Numbered from the stretch's first letter, positions 3,559 through 44,309 are shown. The stretch: 64,000 nucleotides of DNA from Candidatus Levybacteria bacterium RIFCSPHIGHO2_02_FULL_40_18 (GCA_001782235.1 MFOC01000003.1:47851-111850), one strand, 5' to 3'. The notes: generated from the sequence alone by a model not told the origin. A program made the numbers and translations.

Positions 3559-4032
3559 TCAAAAGATTACAAAGAGTATCAAATAGAGCCATATCAAGGC
3601 TAGAATTTGGGTTATTATGCCCCAAGGCTTGTCAAGCTTGACATTGAGCCTGTGTTGGATTTCATACATGAAAGAAGACCCGGGGAAATCCTTCCCGAAC
3701 ATCCATGAGGGAGCGGTAAGCCAGTCGGGAGCCTGAGCCGCAATAATACACAAGAAAACGAAAGGATAGTTCGCAAGAGCCATAGGCGGCCCTTTCTGCA
3801 AGATTAGACTATATAATATGTAAGACAGGATAAAACCCACCAAAACATCTATTATTGCTTCCCGCCTCAGCCTTTCCTTTGTCTTTTTTCTCCAATGGGT
3901 TCCAGAATCCCAGTGAGGAACAACGTCCGCGACAAAATGTGAGACAAAGGAAGCACCTACGGCCAGAAGAGGATTTCCTGAAAACTTGGCTGCCATCATT
4001 GTACCTATCAAGGCATGAGAAGTAGCCGTCAT
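3559..4032 (-). CDS. Small polytopic membrane protein, possibly a DUF457/YdjM-like membrane-bound metal-dependent hydrolase
   Basis: Several TM helices. His/Asp-rich motif HFVADVVPHWDSGTH. This is a weak family guess. Confidence 0.3.
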   Translation of the reverse strand: MTATSHALIGTMMAAKFSGNPLLAVGASFVSHFVADVVPHWDSGTHWRKKTKERLRREAIIDVLVGFILSYILYSLILQKGPPMALANYPFVFLCIIAAQAPDWLTAPSWMFGKDFPGSSFMYEIQHRLNVKLDKPWGIITQILALIWLYLILFVIF

Positions 4033-4147
4033 ACGTATATGATACCATCAGGACTCAAAAATAGCTAAATCCGGCTTCTGACAGTTTGTTTACTATGGGC
4101 TTGACAAACAAAGAAGGTTATGTTAGAATCCCAAAATCTATTTAAAC

Positions 4148-4837
4148 ATGAGAAAAATTACATCTTTATTTCTATCTTTTATGGCTGTCGCAATTGCGGC
4201 AACCGCAGTTTTTGCTGCCGGTGAATCCAATTGTCAAATAGTTTACGGTGGTGGAGAAGTTTGTCCCCCAAAACAAGTTAAATTCACTATTAATAAGACA
4301 GTTCAAAAGCCCGGAAAAGGTGGCGGAGATTTTGTCGAAAATCTCACTATTAATGATCCGAGATTTGCTCCCGATCAAAATGTAAACTTCAAGATCATAA
4401 TAGAAAACACTGGTGATACTGACGTTTCAAACCTCAATGTAGTTGATTCATTCCCGGAATTCTTATCTTTTGTTGCAGGCGTAGGAAACTCAAACGTTGG
4501 CGCAAAACAAATTAATTTCATTATCGGAACTCTTAAAAAGGGTGAGAAAATGGAATTTGTTATTACTGCAAAAACCGCAGAGGGAGACAAATTGCCTGCA
4601 AACCAAGCTATAACCTGCGTGACAAATAACGTGAAGGCAATGGCCCCTGATGGAGTTACAGCGCAGGACAATGCTCAAGTCTGTATCGAAAAACAAGTGC
4701 TTGGAGCGGAGACTCCTAAAATCTTTGAAAAACCAAAAATAAAAGAACTTCCCCCAACAGGTCCTGAGTTAGGGCTTTTGGCCGCCCTAATTCCAACCGG
4801 ACTTGCTGGAATTTATCTAAGAAGAAAAGCAAAATAA
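4148..4837 (+). CDS. Secreted DUF11 (conserved repeat domain) surface protein with an LPXTG-type cell-wall sorting signal
   Basis: N-terminal signal peptide. A DUF11-like segment (NFKIIIENTGDTDVSNLNVVDSFPEFLSFVAG). The C-terminus has LPPTG, then a hydrophobic stretch, then RRKAK. Confidence 0.6.
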   Translation: MRKITSLFLSFMAVAIAATAVFAAGESNCQIVYGGGEVCPPKQVKFTINKTVQKPGKGGGDFVENLTINDPRFAPDQNVNFKIIIENTGDTDVSNLNVVDSFPEFLSFVAGVGNSNVGAKQINFIIGTLKKGEKMEFVITAKTAEGDKLPANQAITCVTNNVKAMAPDGVTAQDNAQVCIEKQVLGAETPKIFEKPKIKELPPTGPELGLLAALIPTGLAGIYLRRKAK

Positions 4838-5356
4838 TCCGCCAGCCGGCGGACTGCAATTAAGGCAGGAGAAAGCAGTTTCAGACTATTAATTGGCACG
4901 CCCCCAAACAACCTCTAACCCCGTCGAAACAATCCTGAAACTACTCTCCCCGGTCTTAAACCCGCGAATCCCTGAGTTTTGCGAAAGGCAAGCGCGGGAC
5001 CTTTAAAATCGGCATTCTAATTTAAGCTAGCAATTAGAACATGGCTTTAAAAAGCTAAAAGCCAAACGCTGAGAGCTAAAAGCTAAATTAGTTGTTCTTT
5101 GACAAAAGGTATACAGAAGGATGCACCTGAAGATGAACCGAATGGTTCGTCTCAAATGGTGCGTCCCTAATAGGCAACTATCTATTCACGTAGCTAGCTT
5201 TTTAAATTATAGCGAAGATTAGATAGTCTATTTTTTAAAATTAAATCTCCTTACATTCTAGATGTCGGATTCAGCGTACCATGAGTTGAAACTGCGCATG
5301 GTGCGCGGTGTCCGGCATTTAGAGAAACAAAAAGAAAGAAGGAGAAAAGGAGACAA

Positions 5357-5548
5357 ATGAATAATCCCATGAAGGGTTTCCCAAACGAGCTTGAAAGGTT
5401 ATGGGCGAAAAAAGCAATTGAAATCCTGCGAACAGCCGCGCTGTACTTGGTTGTCGCATTGGTTGCAATTGTGATTTTCATCCCAACACTGCTCTATTCC
5501 ATAAAGGAGGTTCTCACCGACCGCAAAAAGCGTAAGAAACGCACCTAG
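5357..5548 (+). CDS. Small single-TM membrane protein with a basic C-terminus (hypothetical)
   Basis: Good RBS (aaggagaaaaggagacaa ATG). A central hydrophobic helix. It lies inside the high-GC island. Confidence 0.3.
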   Translation: MNNPMKGFPNELERLWAKKAIEILRTAALYLVVALVAIVIFIPTLLYSIKEVLTDRKKRKKRT

Positions 5549-5585
5549 ACTTCGGCAAAAACCGAAGAGAAAGACGGAGGAAATC

Positions 5586-5867
5586 GTGACAATACAGGAA
5601 GATTTGGAGAAGGCAATCGAGAGCGCTAAAAATGCACTTGATGCCTGCAAGGTACAGGGAAAGGAGGGAACCGCTTCTTCTCTCGCCGTGATCATAAGCG
5701 AACTTGAGAAAGTCCGCGACCACGTGACAGAGACAGAGCATTATTTCTCCCTACCCCACGAGAACCCGATATGCTCAAGGCATGGAGAGGTAGACCTTAA
5801 CCATCGCTGCAACGTGTTTGTCGGCATGGTTTTTGACTACCTAAGCTACCGCGAGCGGTTCGGATAG
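5586..5867 (+). CDS. Hypothetical protein (93 aa)
   Basis: ORF with an upstream GGAGG. No recognisable domain. It lies inside the high-GC island. Confidence 0.25.
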   Translation: MTIQEDLEKAIESAKNALDACKVQGKEGTASSLAVIISELEKVRDHVTETEHYFSLPHENPICSRHGEVDLNHRCNVFVGMVFDYLSYRERFG

Positions 5868-6046
5868 CCTTTCGGCAAAAACCCAAACGACATCGCAATA
5901 ACTAGCCTTCCCGTAAGGGATTGTAAGTCCGCCGACGCTCTTTGAGCTTTGGCGAGACAAAGGGGGTGGTTATCAAGCCATAAAGCCATCGGCAAGCGAG
6001 GCAGAAATGCCTTGGACCTCAAGCGAACGCGCGTGAGGAAAACCCC

Positions 6047-6484
6047 GTGGAAAGGAAAGGAATGAATCGTTTCAGAAACATCATGGGAGTCGTACTGCTG
6101 CTTTTGGCACTTGCCGCGTTCACGTCTTTCAACAGCGCTGACGTGTCGGCAGGCGGCGGATATCACCATCCAAAGCCATCACCGACGGCAACCAAAACGC
6201 CTAAGGCGACTAAGACACCAACGCAGACATTCACACCGACGGCAACGAATACGCCGGCACCGACGAACACACCGACGCCTACGGCGACGGCTACTCGAAC
6301 ACCGACTGCCACTGCCACAAGGCCACCGCGGGCGAAAGCGACTTCAACGTCGACACCACTTCCCCCGACGGCGACAACTGTGGTGCCGCCTGCTGTCACA
6401 CCAACCCCGCAGGGGCCGCCTGCTCTATTCGGGGGGCCGCCTCCAACAGGGGACGCAGGTCTGGCAGCAACAAGAGGCGACTAA
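6047..6484 (+). CDS. Secreted Thr/Pro-repeat (PT-rich) protein
   Basis: Signal peptide ([14 protein letters not shown]) followed by [32 protein letters not shown] repeats. The alternate-frame Arg-rich ORF 6111..6620 is treated as a frame artefact. Confidence 0.45.
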
Positions 6485-6500
6485 CAAGGAGGAAGCTAAC

Positions 6501-6620
6501 ATGCTTCGAAGGTTGTTCCGCAAGACAAGCGAGCTCGGCCAAACGTTGGTGGAGTACGCCCTCATCATAGCACTGCTCGTGATCGCGGTATTAGCCTTCT
6601 ACCTCACGGACAGGGAATGA
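6501..6620 (+). CDS. flp: Flp/Fap family type IVb pilin (39 aa prepilin)
   Basis: ATG at 6501 is preceded by AAGGAGG (6486-6492). The sequence MLRRLFRKTSELG|QTLVEYALIIALLVIAVLAF matches the Flp motif G-x4-EY plus a hydrophobic helix (class III signal). Confidence 0.6.
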   Translation: MLRRLFRKTSELGQTLVEYALIIALLVIAVLAFYLTDRE

Positions 6621-6660
6621 ACCGTCCCGGGGGGCCATCGACTACTGGAAACTGGCACGG

Positions 6661-6849
6661 ATGCCTTCTACCCTTCAGGATACGCCTGAGGTGCAAACCC
6701 GCAAGGAGGCGGAATTGTCCCACAAACCAAAGCGGCAGCGACCCAAGCGTTCAAAAGACGTAAGGCTTCGTCGCCGTCTGGTGAAAATCAACGGTAACAA
6801 CGGTTCCGAAAAGCGGCGAACCAAGAAAGGCGGCAGACAAGGCGGATAA
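6661..6849 (+). CDS. Very basic Arg/Lys-rich small protein (hypothetical)
   Basis: KPKRQRPKRSKDVRLRRRLVK...KRRTKKGGRQGG. No recognisable family. Coding status is uncertain. Confidence 0.2.
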   Translation: MPSTLQDTPEVQTRKEAELSHKPKRQRPKRSKDVRLRRRLVKINGNNGSEKRRTKKGGRQGG

Positions 6850-7519
6850 GCACCGTAAGATAAACAAACCCTGCCGACATCATGAAACCGAGCGACGAAG
6901 ATTTTCTTTTGACTCTTCCACGAAGAGCAGTAAAGGAGGTACTAAAACTACTCAAAACGCGGCAAGAGCAACGGCGCCAACCTCATACGAACGGTAAGAC
7001 AGCGAAGGAGAAGGAATGGCCTAAAAGACACATTAGTTCCCGATAGCACTGGAAACCCCCGCCATGGAAAAAACCACGAAAACACTGTCTGAATGGTGGA
7101 TGGAAGCCGGTAGATACCGGAGGCTCTTCATCTTCAGGCAGAATATCCACTCCAATAAGCAAGAAGGAGGCAACGGTGCAAGGAAAAGGCCGAAACCACG
7201 GAAGAAGCAAGATCTCGATCAAAAGAGGTCTGGCTAAGACTCGCTACCCTCAGCGCTCTGGAAAACACCAAGCTGAGGCACGAGCCTTACGTGAAGGTCA
7301 CCCAAGCACCCCCTCGGGGAGGACGAATGGCAAAAAGACCGTTCAACGCAACGGGCGGCAAGCGCAAAGCCCGAAAGCCCCCGCCCCCGTGGCACCGTAA
7401 GTCCAAGAGACATCGGAAACGCCACGCGCGCGATCATGGGAACTTCGGGAACGTTCCGAGGAGAAGCCAGCTGTGATAACCATCGATACATAGTTTCATA
7501 GCGCACGGTAAGTGAATCC

Positions 7520-8590
7520 GTGGCAAAAAACGGCAAGTCAAAATCTTCAGAAAGGAAACGCAAAATGCCTGAAGAAACCGGAAATAGGAGTGGCACGCGA
7601 AGGCGAGCTGCTCGAACCACTCAGGCCCCGGCGCCGGCAGCGCCACCAGCCAACGGAGGGCAACCTCCAGCGGCACAGCCTCAAGAGGGAGGAAACATGC
7701 AACGCAGTCTGTTGTGGATACTTGTCATCCTCGCTGCAGTAGCGCTGGCGCTTGCTGCTTTCGCGGTAGGCCTGACCTTGGGTGACAAGGACGACTCGGA
7801 CGGCAGCTCGGCTACAGCCAGCAGTTCGTCAAGCTTAAGCTCCGCACCCGGCACCACCGGCGGCGGCGCCAGCAGCAACAACTCCGCTGACAACGGTCAG
7901 TCAGGCAAGAACGAATCGGAGTCCACGTCAACGGGAAGCTTTCCGACTCTCCCGAGCGATAAGTCCCACGGCGCGTGGAAGATCAAGACCGTAGCCGGCC
8001 TTGAAACATCCGGTGACCGTGTAGTCGCCGAATGGCTTGCGCGTCTGAAGGACCCGGCACCGAGGCTCTGGAAAACGTATCCCAACGTCCCCAACCCGGA
8101 TGTCGCGGACTTCAATGTAGCAGCAGGTGCCGAGTACGGTGTCGCCAACGTCCCGTTCTGTCAGCAGGACACGCGGTGCGACTTCGTGGTACCCGCATGG
8201 CACTACCGCCTGATTACCGCGGACTATGAGTTCCTCGGTCACAAGTGCGGAGGTAAGGGCAACGGATGCCTGCTCCTGCTCATCAACGTGATGGACAAGT
8301 CCTACACGTGGCGCAACCAGATCGCCGACAACGGCTTTTCGGTTCCGGGCAGGTACTGGGACGGTGACAAGCTCGAGTGGGCAGTTTGGGGCCTGGTCAG
8401 CCATGCGAGCGCTAACATGCTCAACTTGCCGACTACTGGCCTCGTGGGTCAGGTACTTAACGCTGGCACGCCCGGCAATGCAGGCGCTAACTGCGGCAAC
8501 GTCAACGGCTGCGGAAGCGTCGAGGTCATGGTCGTGGTGCACGCCGGCGATCGGATCCTGGCCACTGCCGAAACCACCGTTTCGCGGTAA
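7520..8590 (+). CDS. Membrane-anchored exported protein with a Ser-rich linker and a Cys-containing C-terminal domain (hypothetical). The true start may be the internal Met near 7697.
   Basis: Basic N-terminal tail, then TM LLWILVILAAVALALAAFAVGL, a Ser/Gly-rich low-complexity stretch, and a C-terminal globular region with several Cys. Confidence 0.35.
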   Translation: MAKNGKSKSSERKRKMPEETGNRSGTRRRAARTTQAPAPAAPPANGGQPPAAQPQEGGNMQRSLLWILVILAAVALALAAFAVGLTLGDKDDSDGSSATASSSSSLSSAPGTTGGGASSNNSADNGQSGKNESESTSTGSFPTLPSDKSHGAWKIKTVAGLETSGDRVVAEWLARLKDPAPRLWKTYPNVPNPDVADFNVAAGAEYGVANVPFCQQDTRCDFVVPAWHYRLITADYEFLGHKCGGKGNGCLLLLINVMDKSYTWRNQIADNGFSVPGRYWDGDKLEWAVWGLVSHASANMLNLPTTGLVGQVLNAGTPGNAGANCGNVNGCGSVEVMVVVHAGDRILATAETTVSR

Positions 8591-8956
8591 ACGTCGTGAA
8601 CCTCGCCAAGCTACTCTCGATCATTCGAGGAGACCTGATCGAGGAGTGGATCGAAAGGCAGCAGCAGAAACTTGCGGCTCGAGGTCTTGACTGGCTTCCG
8701 AAGGCTGCCTTGGTGATAGTCACCCTGGCAATACTCGTGGCCATAGTCGCCTACGGCGCAAGTCTGCGGCCTTAGGTCTCTCAAGCCTATTAGCCTGGGT
8801 CTGTCGTGATCGACGTCTAAAGCACGCATAATGCTTGTGTGAAATAAGATGATCGTAAACGATTAAGACTCGGAGGGAGTAAAGTTGCACGTGAATGTGA
8901 AAGTTCGTCATTCGACGATTCTGTTCGCTTCGCGCGAACAACTTTCACTCCACCTG

Positions 8957-9010
8957 TATACCTTTACTCTAAAGCTTATAAGGCAATTCCTTATCGGCTT
9001 TAGAGTAAAT
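8957..9010. terminator. Nested inverted repeats (tttactctaaagc ... gctttagagtaaa) at the right edge of the high-GC island. Probable terminator or structured element.
   Basis: A 13-bp perfect inverted repeat with a loop that is itself palindromic (cttataagg/ccttatcg). An upstream arm gtgaaagttcg...cgaacaactttcac lies at 8900-8950. Confidence 0.35.
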
Positions 9011-9084
9011 AGCTAAATAGCTGAACGGCTACATGGTTTTAAAAACTATGCAACCATTTTAACTATTCTAACCATTTAACTTTT

Positions 9085-10143
9085 ATGAGAACAATATCTT
9101 TCATTATTCCTTGCCATAACGAGGAAAAAAGACTAAATAAAACATTTGCCGCCCTACGCCTTGTTCAGGGCGAGCTTCCTCGTGGAATTCGACTTGCCGA
9201 AGTAATATTCGTAGATGACGGCTCAACCGACAAAACTTTTCCAAAGCTTTCAACTCTCGCACAAGAGAACTCTAGTCTTCCTGTATCTATAGTTTCTTAT
9301 AAAAAGAGGCTCGGAAAAGATAAGGCGGCAAGAGAAGGCATAAAGCATTCCGTTTCAAAGTTCAATCTGATTTTAAAACCCGATATGTCAAACCTCAAAA
9401 AAGAACTTGCTAAACTTTATCATAAACCCAAAAGGTTGAGAAGAAAACCCCCATTAGTTTCAGTCATTATGCCCGTCTATAACTCACAAGAGTATATTGA
9501 TAAGGCAGTTCAAAGTGTTTTAAGTCAAACATTTAAGGATTTTGAGCTTATCATTGTTGATGACCATTCAGCTGATAAAAGTTGGAATATAATCAAAAGG
9601 TATGCCCGAAAATCAAAGAAAATTAAATCTCTCAGAAATCGCAAAAAAATAGGGCTTCCAATTTCTGTCAAACGTGCACTTGAGAAAGCTAGGGGGGACT
9701 ATATCACAAAGATTGAAAGCGATGATCTTTGTTATAAAACGCGTTTTGAGAAACAGGTAAGATACCTTAATAAAAATAGACGGACAGTGGCGGTTGGAAC
9801 TCAATATTTATTTATCAATGAAAGAGGGAGAAAGGTTAATAAAAAGGTATCTCCACCTTTATTTGAGAGGATAAACCAATATATCTATCGTTTTCTACCG
9901 GTTCAACAACCTGCGCTCATGATAGCTAAAAAACGTTTGCCTCGCAATTTTGACTTTTACAATTATGACACGGATTCTTTGGAAGACACAGAGTTAGTTT
10001 ACAAACTTTCAAAATATGGAGAAGTTGAAAATCTACCATACACGCTTCTTAGATATAGACTAGATAACGATTATTCATTGCTTGAAACATTAAGAAAAAT
10101 TTACTTTTTGTTCTTCGTTTCACGCATAAAGGAGACCATATGA
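9085..10143 (+). CDS. Glycosyltransferase family 2 protein with two tandem GT-A N-terminal motifs
   Basis: ISFIIPCHNEEKRL...VIFVDDGSTDKT and VSVIMPVYNSQEYIDKAVQSVLSQTFKDFELIIVDDHSADKS. DxD-type (ESDD) motif. Confidence 0.75.
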   Translation: MRTISFIIPCHNEEKRLNKTFAALRLVQGELPRGIRLAEVIFVDDGSTDKTFPKLSTLAQENSSLPVSIVSYKKRLGKDKAAREGIKHSVSKFNLILKPDMSNLKKELAKLYHKPKRLRRKPPLVSVIMPVYNSQEYIDKAVQSVLSQTFKDFELIIVDDHSADKSWNIIKRYARKSKKIKSLRNRKKIGLPISVKRALEKARGDYITKIESDDLCYKTRFEKQVRYLNKNRRTVAVGTQYLFINERGRKVNKKVSPPLFERINQYIYRFLPVQQPALMIAKKRLPRNFDFYNYDTDSLEDTELVYKLSKYGEVENLPYTLLRYRLDNDYSLLETLRKIYFLFFVSRIKETI

Positions 10144-10370
10144 ATAAAGTTCTATTAAATTCACTGGGAGTTGCAGGATTAATAACCTTGTTAGTATTGG
10201 CCTATGTTGGTTTTGCCCTACTTAACCTTGAGAAAAAACGGGCTGAAAACGAAGCTAGATATCAATGCGCTGTTTCCTCAAAATATGAAATCCGCGACGG
10301 AGACGCAAATGTTTCTTTTCCTGTTAAAGAGGTTTATAAGGAATGTCTTCGCGAGAAAGAAATTGACTAA
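10140..10370 (+). CDS. Small single-TM protein (hypothetical)
   Basis: Start overlaps the stop of the GT2 gene (ATGA). N-terminal TM helix. Confidence 0.3.
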   Translation: MNKVLLNSLGVAGLITLLVLAYVGFALLNLEKKRAENEARYQCAVSSKYEIRDGDANVSFPVKEVYKECLREKEID

Positions 10371-10381: not shown

Positions 10382-13300
10382 ATGGAATTTATCAAGCGTT
10401 TTATATTCCCGTTTCTTTTAGTTGTTTTAACAGTTTTTATATCTTTTCTAAACTATACTCCCGGAACCTTTCTTACAGGCTGGGATACTCTTCATCCTGA
10501 GTTTAATTTTGCGCAAAACTTCTCAAATATATTCTTCGGAGTTTTTAGAACCGATCAAGGTTTAGGGGCTGTTGCCGCGCATGCACATATGGCGGAACTT
10601 CCACGCCTAGTCTTATTATGGCTTTTTTCCTTCATCTTTCCTCTCTCATTCCTACGCTACTCTATTATATTTTTGTGTTTCATCCTAGGACCCTTGGGAG
10701 TCTACTTTTTCACGAAACGAGTCCTCAATCTCTACAACAATCTAACAATCGAACAATGGAGCAATTCAATTCCTGCTTTCCTTGCGTCCCTAATCTACAT
10801 CTTTAATCTTGGAACCGTCCAGCATTTTTATGTTCCTTTTGAGATGTTCACAATACAATATGCGGCTCTTCCTTGGCTCTTCTTAACAGCTTTAAGATTT
10901 ATAGAAAAGGGCACGAACTTGGCTCTTTTGTTATTTGCTATCGTAACACTTCTTGCTTCACCCATAGCCTATGCCTCGGTTCTATGGTACGCATACTTTG
11001 CATTTCTACTGTTGTTTCTTATCACATATTCAGTACTAAAACGGCAAAGAAAAGTTCTATTGCGAAGCCTATTCCTCGTCATAACTACCCTCGTCGTCAA
11101 TGCCTATTGGATTCTGCCAAATATGTATTTTTTGGCAAACGGTGCTAGTAATGTTTCCTTGGCCCAAACGAATAAAATTTTTTCAGATGAAGCTTTTCTA
11201 TACAACAAGGAGTATGGAAATATTTTGGATACGGCCATACTTCGAAACTTCTTATTTTCCTGGACGCAATCAAAAGACGTTCATACAACTGAAGACCTCC
11301 TTTCTGCCTGGAAAACGCATCTTAACAATCCTATTACTTTAACTATCGGGTACGCTGTTTTTGTCATAGTCTTGATAGGAATTTTAATCACCTTGATTAG
11401 GAAAAAGTCGATAGGAATAGCGTTTATCCCAGGCTTCCTGTTTTCCCTAATTATGGTTATGAACATGAACCCTCCTTTTGAAACTCTTTTTTCTTTTCTG
11501 CGAGAAACAAGCCCGATCTTTCGTGAAGCTTTAAGATTCCCATTTACGAAATTCTCAATCCTGCTTATGTTTTCTATGAGCTTCTTTTTTGCGGTTTGCT
11601 TGGCGCAAATCTTGAAAGCAGGGCAAAAGATAAAACCAGCCTATCTAAAAAGCGTCCTGCCTTTGGGAATTGCTTTAGTATTTTCAGCAAGTCTTGCATT
11701 TTATGGCGCGCCGATGTTCAAAGGCGAACTTATTAATCGCCAAATGAGAATTGCAATTCCACCTTACTACTTTGAATTATTTGACTATCTTTCCAAAAAA
11801 CCACAAGGTGCGCGCGTTGCCCCCCTACCGCTTCAATCCCTTTGGGGTTGGGAATACTATAACTGGCGCTATCAGGGAGCAGGTTTTATATGGTTTGGAA
11901 TTAAGCAGCCGGTTTTAGCCCGTGACTTTGACCGTTGGAACGCCCCCAACGAGCAGTATTTCCGCGAGATGTCTACTGCTGTCTATTCACGGGACGTAGG
12001 CCAGATTGAGGCCTTAGCTCGCAAATACAGAATTTCATATTTTCTTTTGGATGAAAGCGTTGTTTTTCCGGGCTACAAGCAAAATGCACTTTGGCATTAT
12101 GAGACGCACGATACTTTTAAAAAATCACGCCACATAAAACTTGAGAAACAGTTCGGATATCTTTATCTTTATAAAGTTGATGAATTTTTGACCGGCGAAG
12201 GCTACGTGCAACAACCGCAAAATATAATATCTGTGGCACCGCAAATTACAGGTGGATTTGTTGATCTTGCGACACAAAATCATGGCGATTACATTACTTT
12301 AGAAGAACCGGATTTCACTTATTTTTCGCGCTCTTTTGTTGATCGTTATGATCGAGTAGATCCTGCAAATATCAGTTTCTTAGGAGATAAACTCATCTTA
12401 AGACTTGGTAAGAATAAGGGATATAGCCTTACGGATTCATGGAAGTCTAATGATATTTTTCCCGAGTTTATGAGGAATTCTTATGATTTATCAATTGAAG
12501 AACAGGGCAATCCTTTCATAGTTGATGATGAACAATTCATTTTCTTTCCAGCAACATCAAGTCCTGTTAATGTCTCGGCTTCCCTTGAAGTGCCGGAGAA
12601 CTGTGGAGGAGCTTTACAAAGTTCAAAATCTCGCGTTATAAGACTTACTGACGCGGTTGCCTTCATAGCAAGGAATGGATCATCGTGTGGTTTTATTACA
12701 TTTTCAAGCGCAAAACAGGATTTTGGAAGTATCCTAATAATTGAAGCGAGAAATCTTAAGGGGTTGCCAACAAGACTTTGTATTAGCGAGAATATTACCG
12801 AGAGATGTGGAATTTACACTGCCCTTGACCCTGGAAATTCTTGGAAGAGATATGTTTTCATAATTCCACCCCTACCATCAGGGGGAAGTGGCTATGCAGT
12901 GCATTTCAATACGGTTGGAATCGGCAATGAGGAAAGCGAGAATGAGATCAGGTTCGCACAGCTTATCCAAATTCCTTATTATCGCATCGCAAATCTCTCT
13001 TTTGTTAAGAACGGGTACGTACTCAAAACAAATGGCGTTTCAATTATATCATCGCTTGAGATCAATCCTACTCTCTACACTACTCTTATCTCCGCTAAAA
13101 ATAATGAGGACGGTCTTATTGCCTTGTTCAAGGCCTTTGATCCGGGGTGGCAAGCTTATCAAGTCAATGTCAAATGTCAAATGTCAAATGTCAAATGTTC
13201 GCTTGCTATGGCTCTTCCCTTTTTATTCGGAAGCGAAATTGGCGAGCATGTTGAGGTGAATGGCTGGGCTAACGGCTGGCTCCTAAATTCGATCAATGAT

Positions 13301-13432
13301 CAAAGATCTAAGATCAAAGATCTAATTGTGATCGTCTATCTTCCCCAGTATCTTGAGTATGCTGGATTCGCTATTCTTATAATAACATTTTGTGTATTAT
13401 CGGGTAGAGTTCTTTTAAAGAGGAGTGAATAA
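10382..13432 (+). CDS. Large polytopic membrane protein (1016 aa) with a big extracytoplasmic C-terminal domain. Putative GT-C-type glycosyltransferase (AftD/DUF3367-like).
   Basis: More than 12 predicted TM helices in the first ~480 aa, followed by a ~500 aa soluble domain and a C-terminal TM. The family assignment is by architecture only. Confidence 0.5.
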   Translation: MEFIKRFIFPFLLVVLTVFISFLNYTPGTFLTGWDTLHPEFNFAQNFSNIFFGVFRTDQGLGAVAAHAHMAELPRLVLLWLFSFIFPLSFLRYSIIFLCFILGPLGVYFFTKRVLNLYNNLTIEQWSNSIPAFLASLIYIFNLGTVQHFYVPFEMFTIQYAALPWLFLTALRFIEKGTNLALLLFAIVTLLASPIAYASVLWYAYFAFLLLFLITYSVLKRQRKVLLRSLFLVITTLVVNAYWILPNMYFLANGASNVSLAQTNKIFSDEAFLYNKEYGNILDTAILRNFLFSWTQSKDVHTTEDLLSAWKTHLNNPITLTIGYAVFVIVLIGILITLIRKKSIGIAFIPGFLFSLIMVMNMNPPFETLFSFLRETSPIFREALRFPFTKFSILLMFSMSFFFAVCLAQILKAGQKIKPAYLKSVLPLGIALVFSASLAFYGAPMFKGELINRQMRIAIPPYYFELFDYLSKKPQGARVAPLPLQSLWGWEYYNWRYQGAGFIWFGIKQPVLARDFDRWNAPNEQYFREMSTAVYSRDVGQIEALARKYRISYFLLDESVVFPGYKQNALWHYETHDTFKKSRHIKLEKQFGYLYLYKVDEFLTGEGYVQQPQNIISVAPQITGGFVDLATQNHGDYITLEEPDFTYFSRSFVDRYDRVDPANISFLGDKLILRLGKNKGYSLTDSWKSNDIFPEFMRNSYDLSIEEQGNPFIVDDEQFIFFPATSSPVNVSASLEVPENCGGALQSSKSRVIRLTDAVAFIARNGSSCGFITFSSAKQDFGSILIIEARNLKGLPTRLCISENITERCGIYTALDPGNSWKRYVFIIPPLPSGGSGYAVHFNTVGIGNEESENEIRFAQLIQIPYYRIANLSFVKNGYVLKTNGVSIISSLEINPTLYTTLISAKNNEDGLIALFKAFDPGWQAYQVNVKCQMSNVKCSLAMALPFLFGSEIGEHVEVNGWANGWLLNSINDQRSKIKDLIVIVYLPQYLEYAGFAILIITFCVLSGRVLLKRSE
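13163..13198 (+). repeat. Heptanucleotide tandem repeat (tcaaatg x4 plus a partial copy) inside the 1016-aa membrane protein CDS
   Basis: gtcaatgtcaaatgtcaaatgtcaaatgtcaaatgttc encodes VNVKCQMSNVKCS. The unit length of 7 is not a multiple of 3. Confidence 0.8.
13291..13333 (+). repeat. In-frame palindromic mini-element (aagatctaagatcaaagatctaat) inside the 1016-aa CDS. It is homologous to the insert in pth.
   Basis: gatcaatgatcaaagatctaagatcaaagatctaattgtgatc encodes INDQRSKIKDLIVI. Compare 21459-21495 in pth, which encodes DPRSKIQDLI. Confidence 0.6.
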
Positions 13433-13670
13433 GTAACGAATAGAAGATCACACAAAATATTGTTTGTCAAGAGGGTAATTTAATCTCCCCAAGTTTTCCA
13501 CATTTTCTCTAAGTAATTTAAAACAGTTTGATAATTCAGTCTAAATTGATTATAAAATTACTCTGGGTCTATCATTTTTGGAGCGGAAAAAAGCTATAGG
13601 TTGCATTATTTCGAGATTTTATGCTATACTTTATTCAGTGTCTAAGATTTAAGATTTAAGATTTAAGAAA

Positions 13671-13877
13671 TTGCTTACATCTTACAACTTAAAACTTACA
13701 AACTTGACTATGAAACTTTTAAAGCTCCTCAGGACACAAAAAAAGGCAGGTAACTTAAATATTGCTCGCGCTGGAAAAGTGATTGACTTTTATCAAGATT
13801 CAATTGAAAAAATAGGTAGGGATCAGATTAAAAAGCTGGTCGAAAAGGGTTTGAGCATCCCAGTGTTTACTCTCTGA
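13671..13877 (+). CDS. Small hypothetical protein (68 aa) in a long intergenic region
   Basis: ORF preceded by a TATACT-like box (13626-13631) and a taagatt x3 repeat. No recognisable domain. Confidence 0.25.
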   Translation: MLTSYNLKLTNLTMKLLKLLRTQKKAGNLNIARAGKVIDFYQDSIEKIGRDQIKKLVEKGLSIPVFTL

Positions 13878-14195
13878 CTTGCATCGGGCAGTATAACGCT
13901 GGGATACAAGTGATATCCTTGAGTGCGCGGGGATACAAAAAAGAGCATCGCTTTCGCTACTGTGAAAATAAATCCTTGAGTACGAAAAGCAATGCTCTTT
14001 TAAAAATTAGCTATTAGTCTTTAGGCAGGAAAAGACTAGGCTATGGGGATAAAGCTAGCAAAAGAAAAATCTTTTGTCAAGAAAATCTGACGAAGCAAAA
14101 ATCAGCGATTTAGGCTGTCCATAAAAGATTTTTCATGTCCCAAAAAACATAGCTAAATCCCGATTTGATCGGGATAAATTTGTCTTTTCTAAAAA

Positions 14196-14238
14196 AGGGG
14201 GTAGGAGTGTTGGGCAGGCATTCTTACCCCCTTTTTGT
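14196..14238. terminator. Bidirectional intrinsic terminator, likely terminating the PIN-TRAM gene on the minus strand
   Basis: GC-rich stem gggggtagg...cttaccccc (14196-14231) with T-runs on both sides (aaaaaa upstream, tttttgt downstream). Confidence 0.45.
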
Positions 14239-14308
14239 ATGGAAACCCCTTTTTGTATTAAACTGTGAAAATTAAGCCATTGCCGGCCCAAATTTTCACG
14301 AATTTTTA

Positions 14309-15106
14309 TTAGTTGCCTGCCGTTTTTATTTTGGAGAAGAGGATTTTGCCGGCGTCTGTTTGAATAATTCGCGAGACTTCTACCTGAACGGTTTTGCCAA
14401 CTGAACTCTTCCCTTGTTCCACGACCAACATGGTGCCGTCGGGTAAATACCCTACCCCCTGATTTAGGCCTTTCCCCTCCTGAACTATTTTTACAAAAAA
14501 CTCCTCACCCGGTAATGCTGTGGTTTTAAGAATGTTGGTCATCTCATAAAGATCAATGGCGCGAACATTTGAGATTTTTGCCTTTTTTGCCAAATTATAA
14601 TCGCACGTAACAATTCTGCCTTTAAATTTTTTGGCATGGTCAATAATTGATTCATCTACCGGCTTTATGAGCTCATCGGGTATTATCTTTACCCTTATCC
14701 CTCGGGTCTTTTTGAACTTTTCAAGCGCATCCATTGCGCGCCGGCCTCGCTCCTTTTTGATAGCGTCTTTTGAATCCGATATATTTTTAAGCTCGGTCAG
14801 CACACTCTCTAAAACTATGAAGTTGCCGTAAAGCGCTCCAATTCTTGCCAAATCAAAAGTCCTCATGTCAATAATTGCCGAAGTATCAAGAAAAACCGCA
14901 TTGTCAATTTTTTTATCTTTTCTAACTTTTTTTGTTCGACGGTGCGGGATTGTGCTAACCACAACCTTCCCCACCTCTTCTGCAATTTGACGAATCACGC
15001 GGGGCGGTAACATTAGATTCTCAAGAACCTCTGATCCAACCGCTCTCGCCATCTCCACCCCGCCGGTTTTACGTTTTAAGTTTTTAGTTTTAAGTTTATC
15101 GCTCAT
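14309..15106 (-). CDS. PIN-domain plus TRAM-domain protein (YacL-like)
   Basis: PIN core (AVFLDTSAIIDMR...IVLESVLTELKNI). C-terminal TRAM-like beta segment (EEFFVKIVQEGKG...GKTVQVEVSRIIQTDAGKILFSK). Confidence 0.65.
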   Translation of the reverse strand: MSDKLKTKNLKRKTGGVEMARAVGSEVLENLMLPPRVIRQIAEEVGKVVVSTIPHRRTKKVRKDKKIDNAVFLDTSAIIDMRTFDLARIGALYGNFIVLESVLTELKNISDSKDAIKKERGRRAMDALEKFKKTRGIRVKIIPDELIKPVDESIIDHAKKFKGRIVTCDYNLAKKAKISNVRAIDLYEMTNILKTTALPGEEFFVKIVQEGKGLNQGVGYLPDGTMLVVEQGKSSVGKTVQVEVSRIIQTDAGKILFSKIKTAGN

Positions 15107-16706: not shown

Positions 16707-17975
16707 TTATCTGTAGCCGATAGGTATTGCTTTCAGGATTGGCGAGAGGATAATTACGCGGCGCCTACCATCAAAGTCAACAACAACGGCTTCAACGTCC
16801 TGCCCCACATCATATGTTGTGCCGGAAGGAATTTTGTCCGAGGGAATAAATCCATTGACGCCCCCTCCGGGCCGGAGGCCCTCAGGGCCGGAGGCATCTT
16901 CAATTGCAAGGGTTATTCCGCGGGTTTTAACCTCAGTCACCGTTCCGCGAACCTTCTCTTCGACTTTGTATTTGTTTCGAACGTTTGCAAATACATCTTC
17001 TAGTGTCTTTTTAATTGAAAGATTTACTCTTCTATTCGCTGTGTCAATCTCAAGAACTTCTGCCTTTATTTTACCTCCGACTTTATATGATGCCCCTAAG
17101 TTCTCCACGCGCGCATAGGAAATCTCAGATATGTGAACAAATCCTTCGACAACAGCTTCCCCTTTCCCTCCTGGGCCGGAGGCCTGCTCTCTGAGTCCCG
17201 AGGCTCTCCGAGTCGGGGACCGGGCCGGAGGCTCAATTTTTACGAAAAGTCCGTAAGGTGCAACCTCTGTGATCTCAGCTTCTATAATTTCGCCGGGCTT
17301 AAGAAGCGCTTTTATAGAATCGATATTTGTGAGAAAAAAGGTTGCTTTCTCTGAAAAAACGGCTCGTTTTTTAGAACGATCATATTCAAGTATTTTAACT
17401 TTTATTTTTGCGCCCGGACCAATAGATTCTTGGGAAAGTATCTGTGAGGCCGGCAAAAATCCGCGAACTCCTTCTCCTGTCAATGTAAAATATCCGCCAC
17501 GGGTAGGCTCCGCAACTTCAACCTCAAAAGCTTCATCGCGGCGAGCCAAATCTTCAAACTTATTAAAGATAATATCGTCAAGCATTCGACGCAGGGAAAC
17601 AACCGGAAAACCTTCTTCTGATTCTGGCGAAATAACAGTTGCCGTAACGCGGTCCCCAACCTTAAGATTTGCTAATAGATTCTCCAAGTTTTGCTTATCA
17701 AATTCAATTACTAAAGCGTCTCCCTTAGCCCCGATGTCCATTAAAATCTCTTGTGGGGTGAGTTTTTTGATAATACCTGAAACAGCCTGCCCTTTCTGAA
17801 GAACCTGGAAAAACGAGCCTTGTTTGGCCATTAACTCGCCCATCGAGGAAGCTGGCTTCCGAGACCCTGAGCTTGTCGAACGGGTTAACTCAGCCATCGA
17901 GCCCGCAGGCTTGCCCTGAGCTTGTCGAACGGGTTTAGAAGAGTTTTTTGTTTTCGGTTTTAAGTTGTCTACCAC
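16707..17975 (-). CDS. S1 RNA-binding domain protein (ribosomal protein S1-like, about four S1 repeats). It carries two in-frame GC-rich inserts and an N-terminal tandem duplication.
   Basis: Repeated S1 motifs (GDRVTATVISPE..., GAKIKVKILEYD..., GEIIEAEITEVAPYGLFVKI, GGKIKAEVLEIDTANRRVNLSIK, VRGTVTEVKTRGITLAIED). The N-terminus has a 45-bp tandem duplication (KPVRQAQGKPAGSMAEL / RKPASSMGEL). Confidence 0.6.
   Translation of the reverse strand: MVDNLKPKTKNSSKPVRQAQGKPAGSMAELTRSTSSGSRKPASSMGELMAKQGSFFQVLQKGQAVSGIIKKLTPQEILMDIGAKGDALVIEFDKQNLENLLANLKVGDRVTATVISPESEEGFPVVSLRRMLDDIIFNKFEDLARRDEAFEVEVAEPTRGGYFTLTGEGVRGFLPASQILSQESIGPGAKIKVKILEYDRSKKRAVFSEKATFFLTNIDSIKALLKPGEIIEAEITEVAPYGLFVKIEPPARSPTRRASGLREQASGPGGKGEAVVEGFVHISEISYARVENLGASYKVGGKIKAEVLEIDTANRRVNLSIKKTLEDVFANVRNKYKVEEKVRGTVTEVKTRGITLAIEDASGPEGLRPGGGVNGFIPSDKIPSGTTYDVGQDVEAVVVDFDGRRRVIILSPILKAIPIGYR
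16867..16895. repeat. GC-rich direct-repeat mini-element (gggccggaggc cctca gggccggaggc) inserted in frame in the S1-protein gene. It encodes ASGPEGLRPGG.
   Basis: The 11-mer gggccggaggc occurs twice, separated by cctca. Copies lie at 17171-17233 and 61217-61252. Confidence 0.65.
17171..17233. repeat. Second, expanded copy of the gggccggaggc element in the S1-protein gene. The two 11-mers are separated by 39 bp.
   Basis: ctgggccggaggcctgctctctgagtcccgaggctctccgagtcggggaccgggccggaggctc encodes EPPARSPTRRASGLREQASGPGG. Confidence 0.6.
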
Positions 17976-25300: not shown

Positions 25301-25922
25301 TGGGAGTCCGGGTCGGGGTTGGTGTGGAGGTTGGTGGTGCCAGATTCACAAAAATCGCGAATGCGCAGTCCCCGGAAGAAGACGCGTCAGTCATTTCTAC
25401 ACGTCTGGTTGAGGCAATATAGCGGACGTCGCATTCAGGATCAAGACCTGAACTTGTATTTGTTGAGAGCCTCCAATCGGAAGAAAGGCTTGACATGACG
25501 TAACAGCCCGCTTCAAGACTACCGCCCCAGGGAGGAGATGCCGTAATTGAACAGGTAGGAGTAGAAAGAGAAACGTTGTAATTCCCTCTGTCTCCTGTGA
25601 TGGTCGCATCCGACTCGCCTTCCCATCCCGCAAATGCAACATCGGTCGCAGCAGCAGGAACCGTTCCTATCGTACACCAGGCCGTCGAACCTGCATAAGT
25701 ACCATTCCCATTGCCGAGCCATTTCCAGCCGGATCCCGATGGGGAACCTGTTTCAATGCTACAACCGGGTGCGGGGGTGGGGGTAGGAGCCTGGGTCGGG
25801 GTTGGTGTGGGAGTGGAATATTGGGCGTAGGTCTTGCCTAGCCCAGAGGAAACAAAGAAAGCAAAGAACGCGAATAAAAATACCCAAGCAAACCCCGCAC
25901 TACCTCTTAAAAAGGATCTCAC
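22380..25922 (-). CDS. Giant secreted surface protein or adhesin (1180 aa) with PT-rich linkers, a LamG/concanavalin-like domain, SdrD-B/Cna-B-like domains and Cys/Asp-rich repeats
   Basis: Signal peptide. TPTPTPTQAPTPTP linkers. LamG-like segment (SFNGSSDWVNVG...GRIDEVGVWQRILNASEIWSLYNAG). B-type domain ISGNVFDDVNANGARDTGENGMSGVAVTI...YIFTDIPAGNYNVDV. Repeated DPxCxxDG motifs. Confidence 0.6.
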   Translation of the reverse strand: MRSFLRGSAGFAWVFLFAFFAFFVSSGLGKTYAQYSTPTPTPTQAPTPTPAPGCSIETGSPSGSGWKWLGNGNGTYAGSTAWCTIGTVPAAATDVAFAGWEGESDATITGDRGNYNVSLSTPTCSITASPPWGGSLEAGCYVMSSLSSDWRLSTNTSSGLDPECDVRYIASTRRVEMTDASSSGDCAFAIFVNLAPPTSTPTPTRTPTPTPTSIPTPTPTPVSNATCPVTAAAFWKMDETAGSNLADATENGNDATANGASPTAAGKLNYARSFNGSSDWVNVGANRTIAQNVSALTMSVWINLTSVTSVSEIVAFSINNGGTPTSNSRAYITFGTPSLGQMTCGGRSADGESLQRVTTTNSGISTGSWYNVTCVINYSADTVDIYINGNHMTTTGSISFSASTTPNSPSASSAIGSQDNGSANYFPGRIDEVGVWQRILNASEIWSLYNAGQACTYGSTTSIISGNVFDDVNANGARDTGENGMSGVAVTIPGIGPQTTDSSGDYIFTDIPAGNYNVDVTPPSGYTSTMTDPAPATVPPNATVNFGLTDNLECQDNADNNGNGIIDACELGCDINGVVSPSCPLPTPGPGTPTPTPGPNDYDPFDPSEDPACSDGINNDGSQGVDSQDPDCHTDGNTGNPGSYVPGFPSESPIPPLCEALTAASSTVGAGESTTITAQDCVSLTPPTYSWPPPTVVPQCQDGIDNDLDGLVDTNDPGCHTDGDAGNPGSYDPSDNSEGAIPGGSNPGSNNDGSGPTTTYTAPSNICSDQVVRQEVNATNPNGTSAISVDLTVTPRNILSGTVREDTAGNNCASGSTPYGASATVTVFDGGGTQTGSDSTDGTGAYSLADTTVCGDKTAVLSSVPEYHISAVRFDGGSWNTSGFSGLTYGPFDFSANHTLDFCISNVVSWFQTTTGDVRMNNLSNNVPGGKYASTDTNNPSVFYSSNFVSEFGSGNASTKGWVVNDEYTYEEDSRNRNGAMSYSFYMNRIAQQNVTTNNIPGCAGGNCTTGISNLATGAYHLNNGDLTLTSYSHQAGARVLLLVNGDVVIQSNVSVPSGSLLIIAAKGNITVDKSIGSTDPSVTTTHLNGILTAEGDIIADGDGCPSGAADRRLNISGALIANSVKPFQSGGAGSVVNNRSLCLEDRNYPSLYVSSRYDFITQLTDFYKTSYTRWREIAP

Positions 25923-41869: not shown

Positions 41870-42348
41870 AAAGGGTATCCTCTTCGATATTTGCAACCAG
41901 AATAGAAAACACAACTTGAAATGAAGGTTTGGCGCCTTACAGCTGAAAACCCCTATCTTTTAAAACGCAATGGCTGAACTAGACGCAGTATATGGGGGAT
42001 GTATATCGATTGGCTACTAAAAACATCCCAGATACTGGTGGAAGCATTAGCATTACTCTTTCTCCCTCCAATTGGAGCAGCAGGTCTGCACCTCAAACTA
42101 AAAGCTAGCCTCTAAACAATTTCACTACTAAAAGGGCGGGGCAGAGCGGTTTTGTCTCTTCCAGGTCTTTCCAGCTCATTCCAATTACTTCTTAGACAAA
42201 TTCCAACGACCATCCCATTAAAGAACCTCTCTCCTATCTTTTTTAGACCTAGAGCTTTGACGGCGAAAACTTGACATAATAGCTTTGTCATTCTTGCATT
42301 CTCTTCAGTCTCCTCTACAGAGAATAGTCAGATCTTAATGCTACAAGA

Positions 42349-44308: not shown

Positions 44309-44309
44309 T

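Follow-up and report, generated by a model that had tools for sequence, protein, structure and literature searches.

Why does a block of markedly GC-rich DNA lie among low-GC genes in a genome of Candidatus Levybacteria (Microgenomates, CPR) from groundwater of the Rifle aquifer? The window, that is, the whole stretch of 64,000 nucleotides analysed here, had been described in a first-pass annotation as carrying a high-GC island at 4840-8950, with GC rising to about 60% immediately past the stop codon of an LPXTG-protein gene. Sliding composition confirmed the anomaly as genuine but displaced its borders (Table 1). The GC-rich part spans 5357-8775, where GC is 0.562 compared with 0.431 upstream and 0.390 downstream (56% against flanks of 39-43%), and reaches 0.578 across 6000-8750; the island is the highest-GC 3.3-kb segment of the 64 kb (0.563), the runner-up region attaining 0.499. 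The stretch directly following the LPXTG gene, 4840-5356, has a GC content of only 42.6% (37-49% locally) and is hairpin-rich and non-coding, the climb beginning near 5500.

Table 1. Features of the island and of its conserved flanks (positions in the window)
Feature	Position	Strand	Remarks
LPPTG-type sortase-substrate surface protein (DUF11/CLIPPER repeat), left conserved flank	4148-4837	+	PF01345, TIGR01451
Hairpin-dense non-coding region, left	4838-5356	+	GC 0.43, z -8.4
orf63, single-pass membrane protein, basic C-terminal tail	5357-5548	+	SD AAGGAG
orf93, soluble 93-aa protein	5586-5867	+	SD GGAGG, clear codon periodicity
Signal-peptide and Pro/Thr-repeat (PT-rich) protein	6062-6484 (alternative GTG start 6047)	+	18-nt periodic repeat family D1
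39-aa Flp-like (class III signal peptide-like) mini-protein	6501-6620	+	perfect AAGGAGG
A-rich, T-poor spacer holding Arg/Lys-rich ORFs	6621-7519	+	A 0.32, T 0.14, GC 0.54
Core gene	7520-8590 (start alternatives 7520/7565/7697)	+	356 aa, >100 homologues, GC3 0.74
o59, 59-aa protein, C-terminal TM helix	8596-8775	+	GC3 0.67
Hairpin-dense non-coding region, right	8776-9084	+	GC 0.40, z -8.7
GT2 glycosyltransferase	9085-10143	+	right flank, host-like composition
o76, 76-aa protein	10140-10370	+	right flank, host-like composition
1016-aa polytopic membrane protein	10382-13432	+	right flank, host-like composition

All plausible genes of the island lie on the plus strand, and their codon usage and ribosome-binding sites differ from those of the flanks, as the first-pass annotation had stated: GC3 is 0.74 against 0.26-0.48, and SD motifs precede six or seven island ORFs compared with three of 35 host genes, many host genes looking leaderless. 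At two-fold codons, C/(C+T) amounts to 0.70-0.92 in island genes versus 0.26-0.44; NNC, AAG and GGC/GGT are favoured, while GGG and AGR are avoided. At four-fold sites, this class has a GC of 0.61-0.80, with C about 1.5-2.5 times as frequent as G. The dinucleotide-signature distance of the island (116) is the highest in the window, where the other values range from 29 to 101. The many GC swings that would have spoken for intrinsic heterogeneity are present in part: a second gene, at 62009-62800, shares the GC3-rich, island-like codon class, and the gene of an 1180-aa surface protein has its GC raised via amino-acid composition.

The island had been regarded as a set of small exported or basic ORFs, which left out its largest and only conserved gene, the core gene; public callers often annotate an antisense ORF, 7928-8542(-), in its place. 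Among its three candidate starts (GTG 7520, ATG 7565 and ATG 7697), the one at 7697 is preceded by the best SD (GGGAGG). The product displays a type II layout, namely, a basic N-terminal tail, a TM helix at about residues 60-86, a Ser/Gly-rich stalk and an extracellular domain of 216 aa with six conserved Cys. It is anchored N-terminally and has no C-terminal sorting signal, and all aligned family members possess a TM anchor, a lipobox or a signal peptide. Homologues match with E down to 1e-99, and none of them is assigned a Pfam family for this domain. An AF2 model of the domain reached a pLDDT of 92.6 and a pTM of 0.91, and its fold found no match in PDB and BFVD with Foldseek, nor did the protein sequence in PDB; homology to S-layer or anchoring domains was likewise not found by Pfam, NCBIfam, PDB-sequence and Foldseek comparisons. 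Names among the family matches are restricted to Levybacteria, Woesebacteria and Patescibacteria. The family to which this membrane-tethered, six-cysteine extracellular domain of the core gene belongs is uncharacterised, and each of its members with a named source comes from a CPR bacterium.

In all genomes examined, the family gene is embedded in one and the same cell-envelope neighbourhood, with synteny in at least 25 loci. The order is RadA, S1, sortase and/or LPXTG protein, family gene, a polytopic membrane protein of about 1000 aa, Rho and M23 peptidase. The large membrane protein, whose representative in the window gave no match in Pfam, NCBIfam and PDB comparisons, is found 3' of the family gene wherever the DNA of a locus reaches that far. 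On the other side, homologues of the LPPTG surface-protein gene, which is of host-like composition (GC3 0.29), precede the family gene in L011, L017-L019, L022, L023, L027 and L029. In 17 of 18 distinct loci, the GC of the family gene exceeds that of its flanks by 6 to 23 points, and its GC3 is above that of the host in the same proportion (for example, 0.84 vs 0.54 and 0.70 vs 0.27). The flanks of all 18 family hosts examined are low-GC (0.37-0.48), and no high-GC host was seen among these loci. At conserved four-fold codons, third-base identity is 0.25-0.42, compared with 0.26-0.33 expected under independence; synonymous divergence is therefore saturated, and GC3 is nonetheless high. Such enrichment across lineages in spite of saturation argues for a bias maintained in place and not for inheritance from a high-GC donor, so the anomaly would be a maintained property of the locus or gene family, not a signature that a recent donor left and amelioration has yet to erase.

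With regard to the history of the segment, the tree of the family gene is incongruent with that of the adjacent gene (NJ trees, without support values). The large membrane protein of the window clusters with those of L022 and L023 (59-60% identity), whereas its family domain clusters with L035, L017 and L011 (64-70%) and shares 57% with L022/L023. These two loci, the closest by their flanks, harbour another allele class, lack the upstream 2 kb or so, and differ in the GT2 gene; L023 has the order LPXTG, one unrelated TM ORF, another allele class, o76 and the large membrane protein. From lineage to lineage, entirely different small ORFs occupy the upstream part. Given the tree conflict and these lineage-specific upstream orphans, the segment behaves as an exchangeable cassette. 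Of the horizontal acquisition proposed at first, this weaker form, allele exchange, finds support in the tree conflict and in the L022/L023 differences, but import from a high-GC donor does not.

Of the four upstream ORFs judged to be coding, three (orf63, PT-rich and Flp-like ORFs) were compared with related loci and family libraries, and orf93 with a large protein database. For orf63, no homologue was found at related loci and no family in Pfam, NCBIfam, PHROG or PADLOC. Among 1.84 billion representative proteins, the only matches of orf93 were its own copy, an artefact at a contig end, and a single weak one, so that it can be considered an orphan. The PT-repeat secretory protein announced by the first-pass annotation is indeed present, with a signal peptide and a Pro/Thr-rich ORF whose second codon positions have a GC of 0.70-0.87; elsewhere, it gave low-complexity matches only. 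It ends in PPPTG, a sortase-like motif devoid of a membrane anchor and of a hydrophobic and basic tail. Public assemblies annotate over it an antisense ORF, 6163-6399(-), which mirrors its ACN/CCN codons. Downstream, o59 starts 5 nt past the core gene stop, and a homologue sought at related loci was not found. As for the spacer, Arg/Lys-rich ORFs do exist in it, but three-base GC periodicity is absent, and their number (nine against 5.6 +/- 1.5 in shuffles) is near that expected of T-poor DNA; since the composition is T-poor, ORFs of such length are expected, and the longest is unexceptional. SD-like motifs precede two of them, 7176-7400 and 7327-7476, as would be expected anyway in purine-rich DNA. 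The fold z of the spacer is only -2.3, and the spacer shows no similarity to anything compared, the N-terminal tails of family members included. It is probably non-coding (leader) or decayed sequence, and its ORFs are largely by-products of composition.

Both ends of the block are bordered by strongly structured DNA. The left region has an MFE of -174 compared with -122.7 +/- 6.1 in shuffles, with hairpins at 4838-4853 and 4860-4959. In a stem-loop at 5246-5344, UCUCCUU pairs with the first of two tandem AAGGAGA just ahead of orf63, and the hairpin 5236-5365 has a z of -8.9; Rfam returned only a chance match for this region. On the right, the MFE is -105.2 versus -66.1 +/- 4.5, and the region contains a 21-bp stem at 8963-9009 (inverted repeat I4). 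Other intergenic regions of the window are mostly at z 0 to -2.8. Comparable structured windows were detected 3' of the family gene in L011, L019, L022, L023 and L037, with no sequence conservation among the structured flanks. We infer that the left region is a 5' leader and stabiliser of an operon, and the right one may represent its 3' stabiliser or terminator.

With a probability of about 0.55, we favour the view of the block at about 5357-8775 as a genuine cluster of plus-strand genes, a strongly expressed, exchangeable surface-protein cassette of maintained GC at a conserved envelope locus. The segment between the LPXTG gene and the genes of o76 and the large membrane protein would be a replaceable cassette, exchanged among Microgenomates through recombination in the conserved flanks. 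It may function as an operon from which surface and secreted proteins are expressed very strongly. Such expression would fit the strong SD motifs, which the genome otherwise nearly lacks, the preference for codons ending in C, the avoidance of GGG and AGR, and the 5' and 3' stem-loops; the two stem-loop clusters would stabilise the operon mRNA. The core product would enter the membrane by way of its N-terminal signal anchor, and a Ser/Thr-rich, possibly glycosylated stalk would display it at the cell surface, of which it would form a major, fast-evolving part. The PT-rich protein, like the Flp-like peptide and the remaining mini-ORFs, may then be a lineage-specific accessory or decaying passenger. 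Some observations run against this view: the S1-domain protein gene at 16707-17975, probably well expressed, has host-like codon usage (NNY-C 0.36), the codon classes of the window are bimodal, not graded, as expected of alien genes, and GC is raised in the probably non-coding spacer too, beyond the reach of translational selection.

Other explanations have to be weighed against this one. The chimeric join envisaged in the first-pass annotation, in which a low-GC CPR contig would be fused to high-GC DNA of another organism, fits the metagenomic origin of the DNA and the fact that eight of ten exact-match contigs terminate within 5323-7793. It deserves practically no credence, because two independent assemblies made with different assemblers, the original ENA scaffold (L001) and the Logan assembly of SRR2090157 (L003), are both 100% identical to the window over 4001-9500 and agree with its own 65-kb contig through both junctions; in relatives too, the GC-rich family gene is flanked by low-GC DNA. 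A classical horizontal island, derived from a donor with high GC and SD use, lodged between the LPXTG and GT2 genes, unameliorated and having lost its mobility genes, is an unlikely source, although the locus shares with such islands a discrete, alien-like class in GC3, codon usage and SD use, an atypical dinucleotide signature, gene content that varies among close relatives (the upstream 2 kb is missing in the closest ones), upstream ORFs lacking relatives (in a large protein database for orf93, at related loci for the others), and tree-flank conflict. Unlike them, it has no integrase domain, transposase, tRNA or credible flanking direct repeat, and no phage, plasmid, IMG/VR, PHROG or PADLOC similarity; the proposal of a degraded integrated, phage-derived or pilus-related element finds no support. 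No matching donor lineage emerged, orf93 and the gene at 62009-62800 both lacking relatives in large protein databases. In essentially all lineages, the core gene keeps both its synteny and its atypical composition, always within low-GC flanks, and at saturated synonymous sites amelioration should have removed any donor signature. Furthermore, four-fold sites of only intermediate GC, rich in C over G and with GGG avoided, are unlike plain high-GC mutational pressure.

Equally improbable is a recombination hot spot with GC-biased gene conversion (gBGC), by which AT-to-GC changes would be fixed tract-wide, coding or not, as the cassette is often replaced by homologous recombination in its conserved flanks, with no need for high expression. 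The evidence of allele exchange suits it, as does the raised GC of the apparently non-coding spacer, which translational selection cannot explain; moreover, GC-rich blocks of different lineages are closer to each other in dinucleotide signature than to their own flanks, a noisy comparison on short sequences. However, gene conversion should enrich G and C to the same extent, whereas C predominates, NNC is preferred and GGG avoided, and the hairpin-rich flanks right outside the block are not GC-rich. Reported effects of gBGC in bacteria are also far smaller than +40 points of GC3. A far more doubtful idea is that of a minimal or remnant Tad/Flp pilus module, in which the 39-aa peptide (MLRRLFRKTSELG↓QTLVEYALIIALLVIAVLAFYLTDRE) would be a functional Flp pilin, with its peptidase encoded elsewhere and the exported neighbours as accessories. 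As in the Flp/Fap pilins (PF04964) of Tad (type IVb/IVc) pili, a processing-type motif G↓XXXXEY, here G↓QTLVEY, precedes a hydrophobic helix of about 20 residues (ELG↓QTLVEYALIIALLVIAVLAF) in a small protein with a strong RBS, and six-frame translation of the window and of all related loci compared yields this motif a single time, which speaks against chance recurrence. The first-pass annotation saw a textbook prepilin (ELG↓QTLVEYALIIALLVIAV); the motif and its SD stand, but the Pfam match (E 4.9e-4, 20.3 bits) is under the gathering score of 32.2, NCBIfam models gave no match, and the predicted mature peptide has just 26 aa. Gene and motif are absent from more than 25 related loci, and the neighbours are unlike TadE/F/G or other pilus proteins. 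The absence of tad/cpa and integrase genes nearby, already reported, was borne out: Pfam detected no Tad/Cpa, type IV pilus or integrase domains among the 30 larger ORFs across the window, and Pfam and NCBIfam no TadV/CpaA, TadA/CpaF or TadB/C in the island. In CPR bacteria, type IV pilus machinery, prepilin peptidase included, is almost universal (PMC13293708), a point in favour of such a module.

The surface-protein cassette that we favour can be compared with two known systems. In common with sortase/LPXTG loci of monoderms, the locus includes an LPPTG DUF11 protein gene here, and in L013 and L015 a sortase and a mini PxTG protein directly upstream of the family gene; unlike in those loci, neither the N-terminally anchored family protein nor the PT-rich ORF carries a complete C-terminal sorting signal. 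The S-layer or major surface-protein expression loci of Gram-positive bacteria, exemplified by Lactobacillus slpA/slpB, differ in that the family protein has a mass of about 30 kDa, is anchored N-terminally by a transmembrane segment or a lipid and has no homology to an S-layer protein or SLH-type anchor, and in that a family-wide conserved GC3 gain of 30-40 points is not described for S-layers. In S-layer genes, nevertheless, structure in the 5' UTR and biased codon usage occur together with alternative alleles, and slp mRNA is reportedly stabilised by a long, strongly structured 5' region (PMC3666127). The locus studied here resembles them in its exported surface protein, its genome-distinct codon usage, its structured 5' region and its alleles, which are alternative to each other or can be exchanged at a single expression site.

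The sliding GC profile of the window, whose mean is 40%, contains one outstanding block, which bears out the anomaly reported in the first-pass annotation but not its start at 4840, since 4840-5356 has 42.6% GC and the climb starts near 5500. GC reaches 0.56 over 5357-8775 and 0.58 over 6000-8750, compared with 0.43 upstream and 0.39 downstream, making the block the top 3.3-kb window for GC of the 64 kb (0.563; runner-up region, 0.499). The plus strand also shows a strong A-over-T skew from 6100 to 7700. Non-coding RNA was considered as the cause and rejected: ARAGORN detected no tRNA or tmRNA in the whole window and Rfam, at gathering and E-value thresholds, gave no meaningful match, so that the block is not a structured-RNA gene, and coding periodicity is clear everywhere in it except 6621-7519.

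An exact look-up with the upstream LPXTG protein retrieved ten contigs from ENA, NCBI, JGI and Logan. Two of them, the original scaffold in ERZ28563625 and a Logan assembly of SRR2090157 made independently, cross both junctions and match the window at 100% identity throughout 4001-9500. The chimeric join that had been considered possible is ruled out, two independent assemblies reproducing both junctions identically. All ten copies are identical or 1 nt apart, and an analysis of dN/dS among population variants was tried and dropped. The eight other contigs (L002 and L004-L010) stop inside the island, at 5323, 5909, 6778, 6928, 7319, 7724, 7793 and 7793, and several exact-match contigs start at 1471-1976. 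The ends within the island may have to do with coverage or with heterogeneity among strains, or only with the contigs being short; their clustering is suggestive of strain variation, yet is expected of short contigs picked via an adjoining gene, and was not used as evidence.

Layout of the GC-rich block and its borders, from ORF, periodicity and RBS analysis
Feature	Coordinates	Strand
Non-coding region, 519 nt	4838-5356	
orf63, small TM protein	5357-5548	+
orf93	5586-5867	+
Signal-peptide and Pro/Thr-repeat ORF	6062-6484	+
39-aa Flp-like ORF	6501-6620	+
Spacer, A-rich/T-poor, 900 nt	6621-7519	
356-aa ORF (core gene), internal starts 7565 and 7697	7520-8590	+
59-aa tail-anchored ORF	8596-8775	+
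Non-coding region, 309 nt	8776-9084	

The block had been described as encoding only small exported or basic proteins, a description that passed over the 356-aa core gene. Several public assemblies (loci L001-L009) instead call antisense ORFs at 6163-6399 (-) and 7928-8542 (-), which are mirror images of the real PT-rich and family-gene frames; composition-trained gene finders mis-annotate the block. The Arg/Lys-rich small ORFs, previously counted as genes, fall in the spacer, which lacks the three-base GC periodicity found in all other ORFs of the block. Stop codons are scarce there because T is 0.14, and the open stretches are near shuffle expectation (9 stretches of at least 45 codons against 5.6 +/- 1.5 expected; the longest, 117 codons against a shuffle mean of 100). 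These ORFs are taken to be largely compositional by-products, and one or two might be translated, SD-like motifs being present on two of them. The spacer matches nothing, the N-terminal tails of family members included, and the idea that it was once the N-terminal tail of the family gene and has decayed was abandoned when blastx against all family proteins came back empty.

With regard to the core gene, the product of 7697-8590 has more than 100 homologues at E ~1e-42 or better, whose source names are Levybacteria, Woesebacteria and Patescibacteria only, and a profile search recovered the same compact set. A scan of 185,579 species genomes yielded 18 family loci, all with a CPR-type neighbourhood; several are titled generic "uncultured Gammaproteobacteria", a title contradicted by their gene content. 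In the family alignment, the N-terminus varies, being a signal peptide, a lipobox or a basic tail with a TM helix, and one member has a SAP motif; a low-complexity Ser/Thr/Pro/Gly stalk and a conserved domain of ~216 aa with six near-invariant cysteines make up the rest. An SAP/HeH-like helix-hairpin motif occurs in some members or upstream ORFs (proteins P0003, with a match to Pfam PF02037, P0009 and P0017; 8964-9416 in L027), on the side of the TM helix that is predicted to be cytoplasmic; a Lys/Arg-rich tail takes this position in the window's protein. Wherever a locus has enough flanking DNA, the gene lies in one same neighbourhood comprising RadA, an S1-domain protein, a sortase and/or LPXTG-type protein, Rho and an M23/LysM peptidase, often a GT2 glycosyltransferase, and, directly downstream, a polytopic membrane protein of ~1000-1300 aa. 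In the window this neighbour has 1016 aa and no match in Pfam, NCBIfam or PDB; it may resemble GT-C glycosyltransferases, which we retain as a lead only. The site is a conserved cell-envelope locus and not a random insertion site. The family itself is conserved and confidently modelled, lacks relatives in structure or sequence, and holds a fixed cell-envelope position.

The difference in codon usage and RBS style from the flanks, noted at first pass, holds: GC3 is 0.74 in the core gene against 0.26-0.48 in host genes, and AAGGAGG or GGAGG precedes the island ORFs, whereas an SD of any kind is found in only 3 of 35 host genes. Many host genes carry a TATAAT-like box 6-16 nt before the ATG (e.g. 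18049, 18649, 28855, 14309-15106), which suggests that leaderless or very short-leader mRNAs are widespread in this Levybacteria genome from the Rifle aquifer. The block is not a recent import from a high-GC taxon; the anomaly belongs to the gene family. The family gene exceeds its own flanks by 6-23 GC points in 17 of the 18 distinct loci (the exception is L031), with a still larger excess in GC3 (gene versus host: 0.81 vs 0.51, 0.84 vs 0.54, 0.70 vs 0.27 and 0.70 vs 0.29), and no host of matching high GC was found among the loci examined (flank GC, 0.37-0.48). Third-base identity of the window allele to the others, taken at conserved four-fold codons, is 0.25-0.42, where independence predicts 0.26-0.33; synonymous sites between alleles are saturated. 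Since GC3 is nevertheless high in each allele, and a donor signature would have ameliorated, the bias is maintained by a force. This is a clear case of a GC, codon and RBS anomaly that is a maintained property of a gene family and not recent foreign DNA. Nor does the block appear to be a degraded phage-derived element, another suggestion of the first-pass annotation: blastn and tblastn searches of phage and plasmid collections, a scan of IMG/VR, PHROGs and PADLOC all came back empty, for plasmid and defence origins as well. As possible insertion scars, only short, unconvincing repeats and inverted repeats were found around the block (the 24-nt pair at 5098/8949 depends on a palindromic GTATAC core), and a dinucleotide signature shared among GC-rich blocks was given little weight, being noisy at 1-4 kb.

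As for the force that keeps the block GC-rich, the candidates are selection tied to mRNA stability and very high expression, a GC bias associated with recombination, or the two together. Two-fold NNY codons shift most (C/(C+T) of 0.70-0.92 in Levybacteria-type alleles against 0.26-0.44 in hosts), and family alleles favour AAG, avoid GGG and AGA/AGG, and prefer C to G at four-fold sites, a pattern closer to codon selection linked with expression than to plain high-GC mutation pressure. A simple expression account is nonetheless opposed by the bimodality of the codon classes, by the host-like codon usage of the S1-domain gene and by the raised GC of the spacer.

The content of the locus varies between lineages. 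By the large membrane protein, the window is nearest to L022 and L023 (59-60% identity), whereas by the family domain it is nearer to L035, L017, L011, L018 and L027 (64-70%) than to L022/L023 (57%), which represent another allele class; neighbour-joining trees of the two proteins disagree accordingly. L023 has the order LPXTG gene, unrelated multi-TM ORF, family gene, homologue of o76 (the 76-aa protein encoded at 10140-10370) and large membrane protein; it lacks GT2 and all the small ORFs of the window. In L011, L019, L027 and L037, GC-rich plus-strand mini-ORFs also lie upstream of the family gene, unrelated in sequence, and encode TM peptides, secreted proteins and basic stretches. Homologues of the window's small ORFs were found in related loci neither by tblastn nor by tblastx, and against databases of billions of proteins orf93 and the gene at 62009-62800 proved to be orphans. 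Taken together, the tree conflict, the content of L023, the unrelated mini-ORFs and the orphans indicate that what lies between the conserved flanks is hypervariable and has apparently been exchanged among Microgenomates. A possible orf93 variant, P0103, was set aside: it is an identical sequence fused to ...KDRKSTRLNSSHSQIS, an apparent contig-end or adapter-type artefact of a public assembly.

The 39-aa ORF, presented at first as a textbook Flp prepilin, does have the ELG|QTLVEY motif (unique in all sequence examined), a hydrophobic helix and a perfect RBS. However, it scores 20.3 bits against a Pfam Flp threshold of 32.2, has no NCBIfam match, would yield a mature peptide of 26 aa and is present in no relative examined. 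As already observed, tad/cpa genes are absent nearby: Tad and type IV pilus domains were found in none of the 30 larger window ORFs scanned. Type IV pili, and hence a prepilin peptidase, are generally encoded by CPR bacteria (PMC13293708), which makes processing of the peptide conceivable; membership in the Flp family is not established.

Several other features of the window deserve mention. The gene at 22380-25922 (-), at 49% GC, encodes a 1180-aa surface protein with Laminin_G_3 and SdrD_B-like domains; its raised GC lies at codon position 2 (0.56), from a Thr/Ser/Gly/Pro-rich composition, and GC3 is host-like (0.43), so that this GC swing and the island differ in cause. Genes resembling a RiPP cluster occupy 40403-46396, encoding a radical SAM/SPASM protein, an M16 peptidase, a nitroreductase-family protein and a YcaO (43034-46396); a second YcaO is encoded at 58206-59480. 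A gene for a 23S rRNA intervening-sequence protein (PF05635, E 5e-27) stands alone at 27371-27733 (-), in a window without rRNA. Just beyond the left end of the window, ~3.5 kb upstream of Rho, 395-4390 of L002 (NCBI MAG contig MFPG01000003.1) encodes a protein of 1331 aa that has matches of Phage_int_SAM type and to Peptidase_S74 (tail-fibre chaperone), with no catalytic integrase domain listed.

The block is bracketed by regions of strong predicted RNA structure. The upstream and downstream non-coding regions have fold z-scores of -8.4 and -8.7 versus shuffles, and a 100-nt stem-loop at 5246-5344 (z -8.9) pairs with an AAGGAGA motif, the first of two in tandem ahead of orf63. Fifteen other intergenic regions range from +0.8 to -2.8, the exceptions being 13433-14308 and the region beside the 62009-62800 gene. 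The former, 876 nt long and following the gene for the 1016-aa membrane protein, has z about -10 against mononucleotide shuffles; it contains several perfect inverted repeats of 12-16 nt, as well as a 55-aa ORF that public assemblies call, and matches no Rfam family. The latter (62801-63631, z about -4) adjoins a minus-strand gene for a 263-aa secreted-looking orphan whose sole database match is itself, the only other gene of the island class in the 64 kb (GC3 0.68, NNY-C 0.77, no GGG or AGR, GGAGG SD). Sliding-window folding revealed the same bracket in L011, L019, L022, L023 and L037; the structured flanks show no sequence conservation.

The block is a real, exchangeable, GC-rich surface-protein cassette at its native locus. 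It supplies a conserved family with named members in CPR bacteria only, exposes public gene calls on the wrong strand, and cautions island-finding and MAG-decontamination tools, which would flag or delete DNA of such maintained GC. We can further propose, with a probability of only about 15%, that the family is the major S-layer-like coat protein of Microgenomates, with a fold absent from PDB, and that GC3/C-ending codons, SD and stem-loop-bracketed mRNA mark a few hyper-expressed, rapidly exchanged surface genes (62009-62800 being the second in the window) in CPR genomes that otherwise lack SD and are AT-rich. Little is known of the surface proteins of CPR bacteria, which are uncultivated episymbionts. 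If the expression inference holds, major surface proteins of these bacteria could be nominated by composition alone, and, if the whole proposal is true, the signature of composition, SD and stem-loops would allow host-contact proteins to be found straight from sequence. S-layer genes likewise have mRNA-stabilising structured 5' leaders, biased codon usage and alternative alleles (PMC3666127), and the likeness of the block to them in leader, codons and alleles is one of analogy, not homology.
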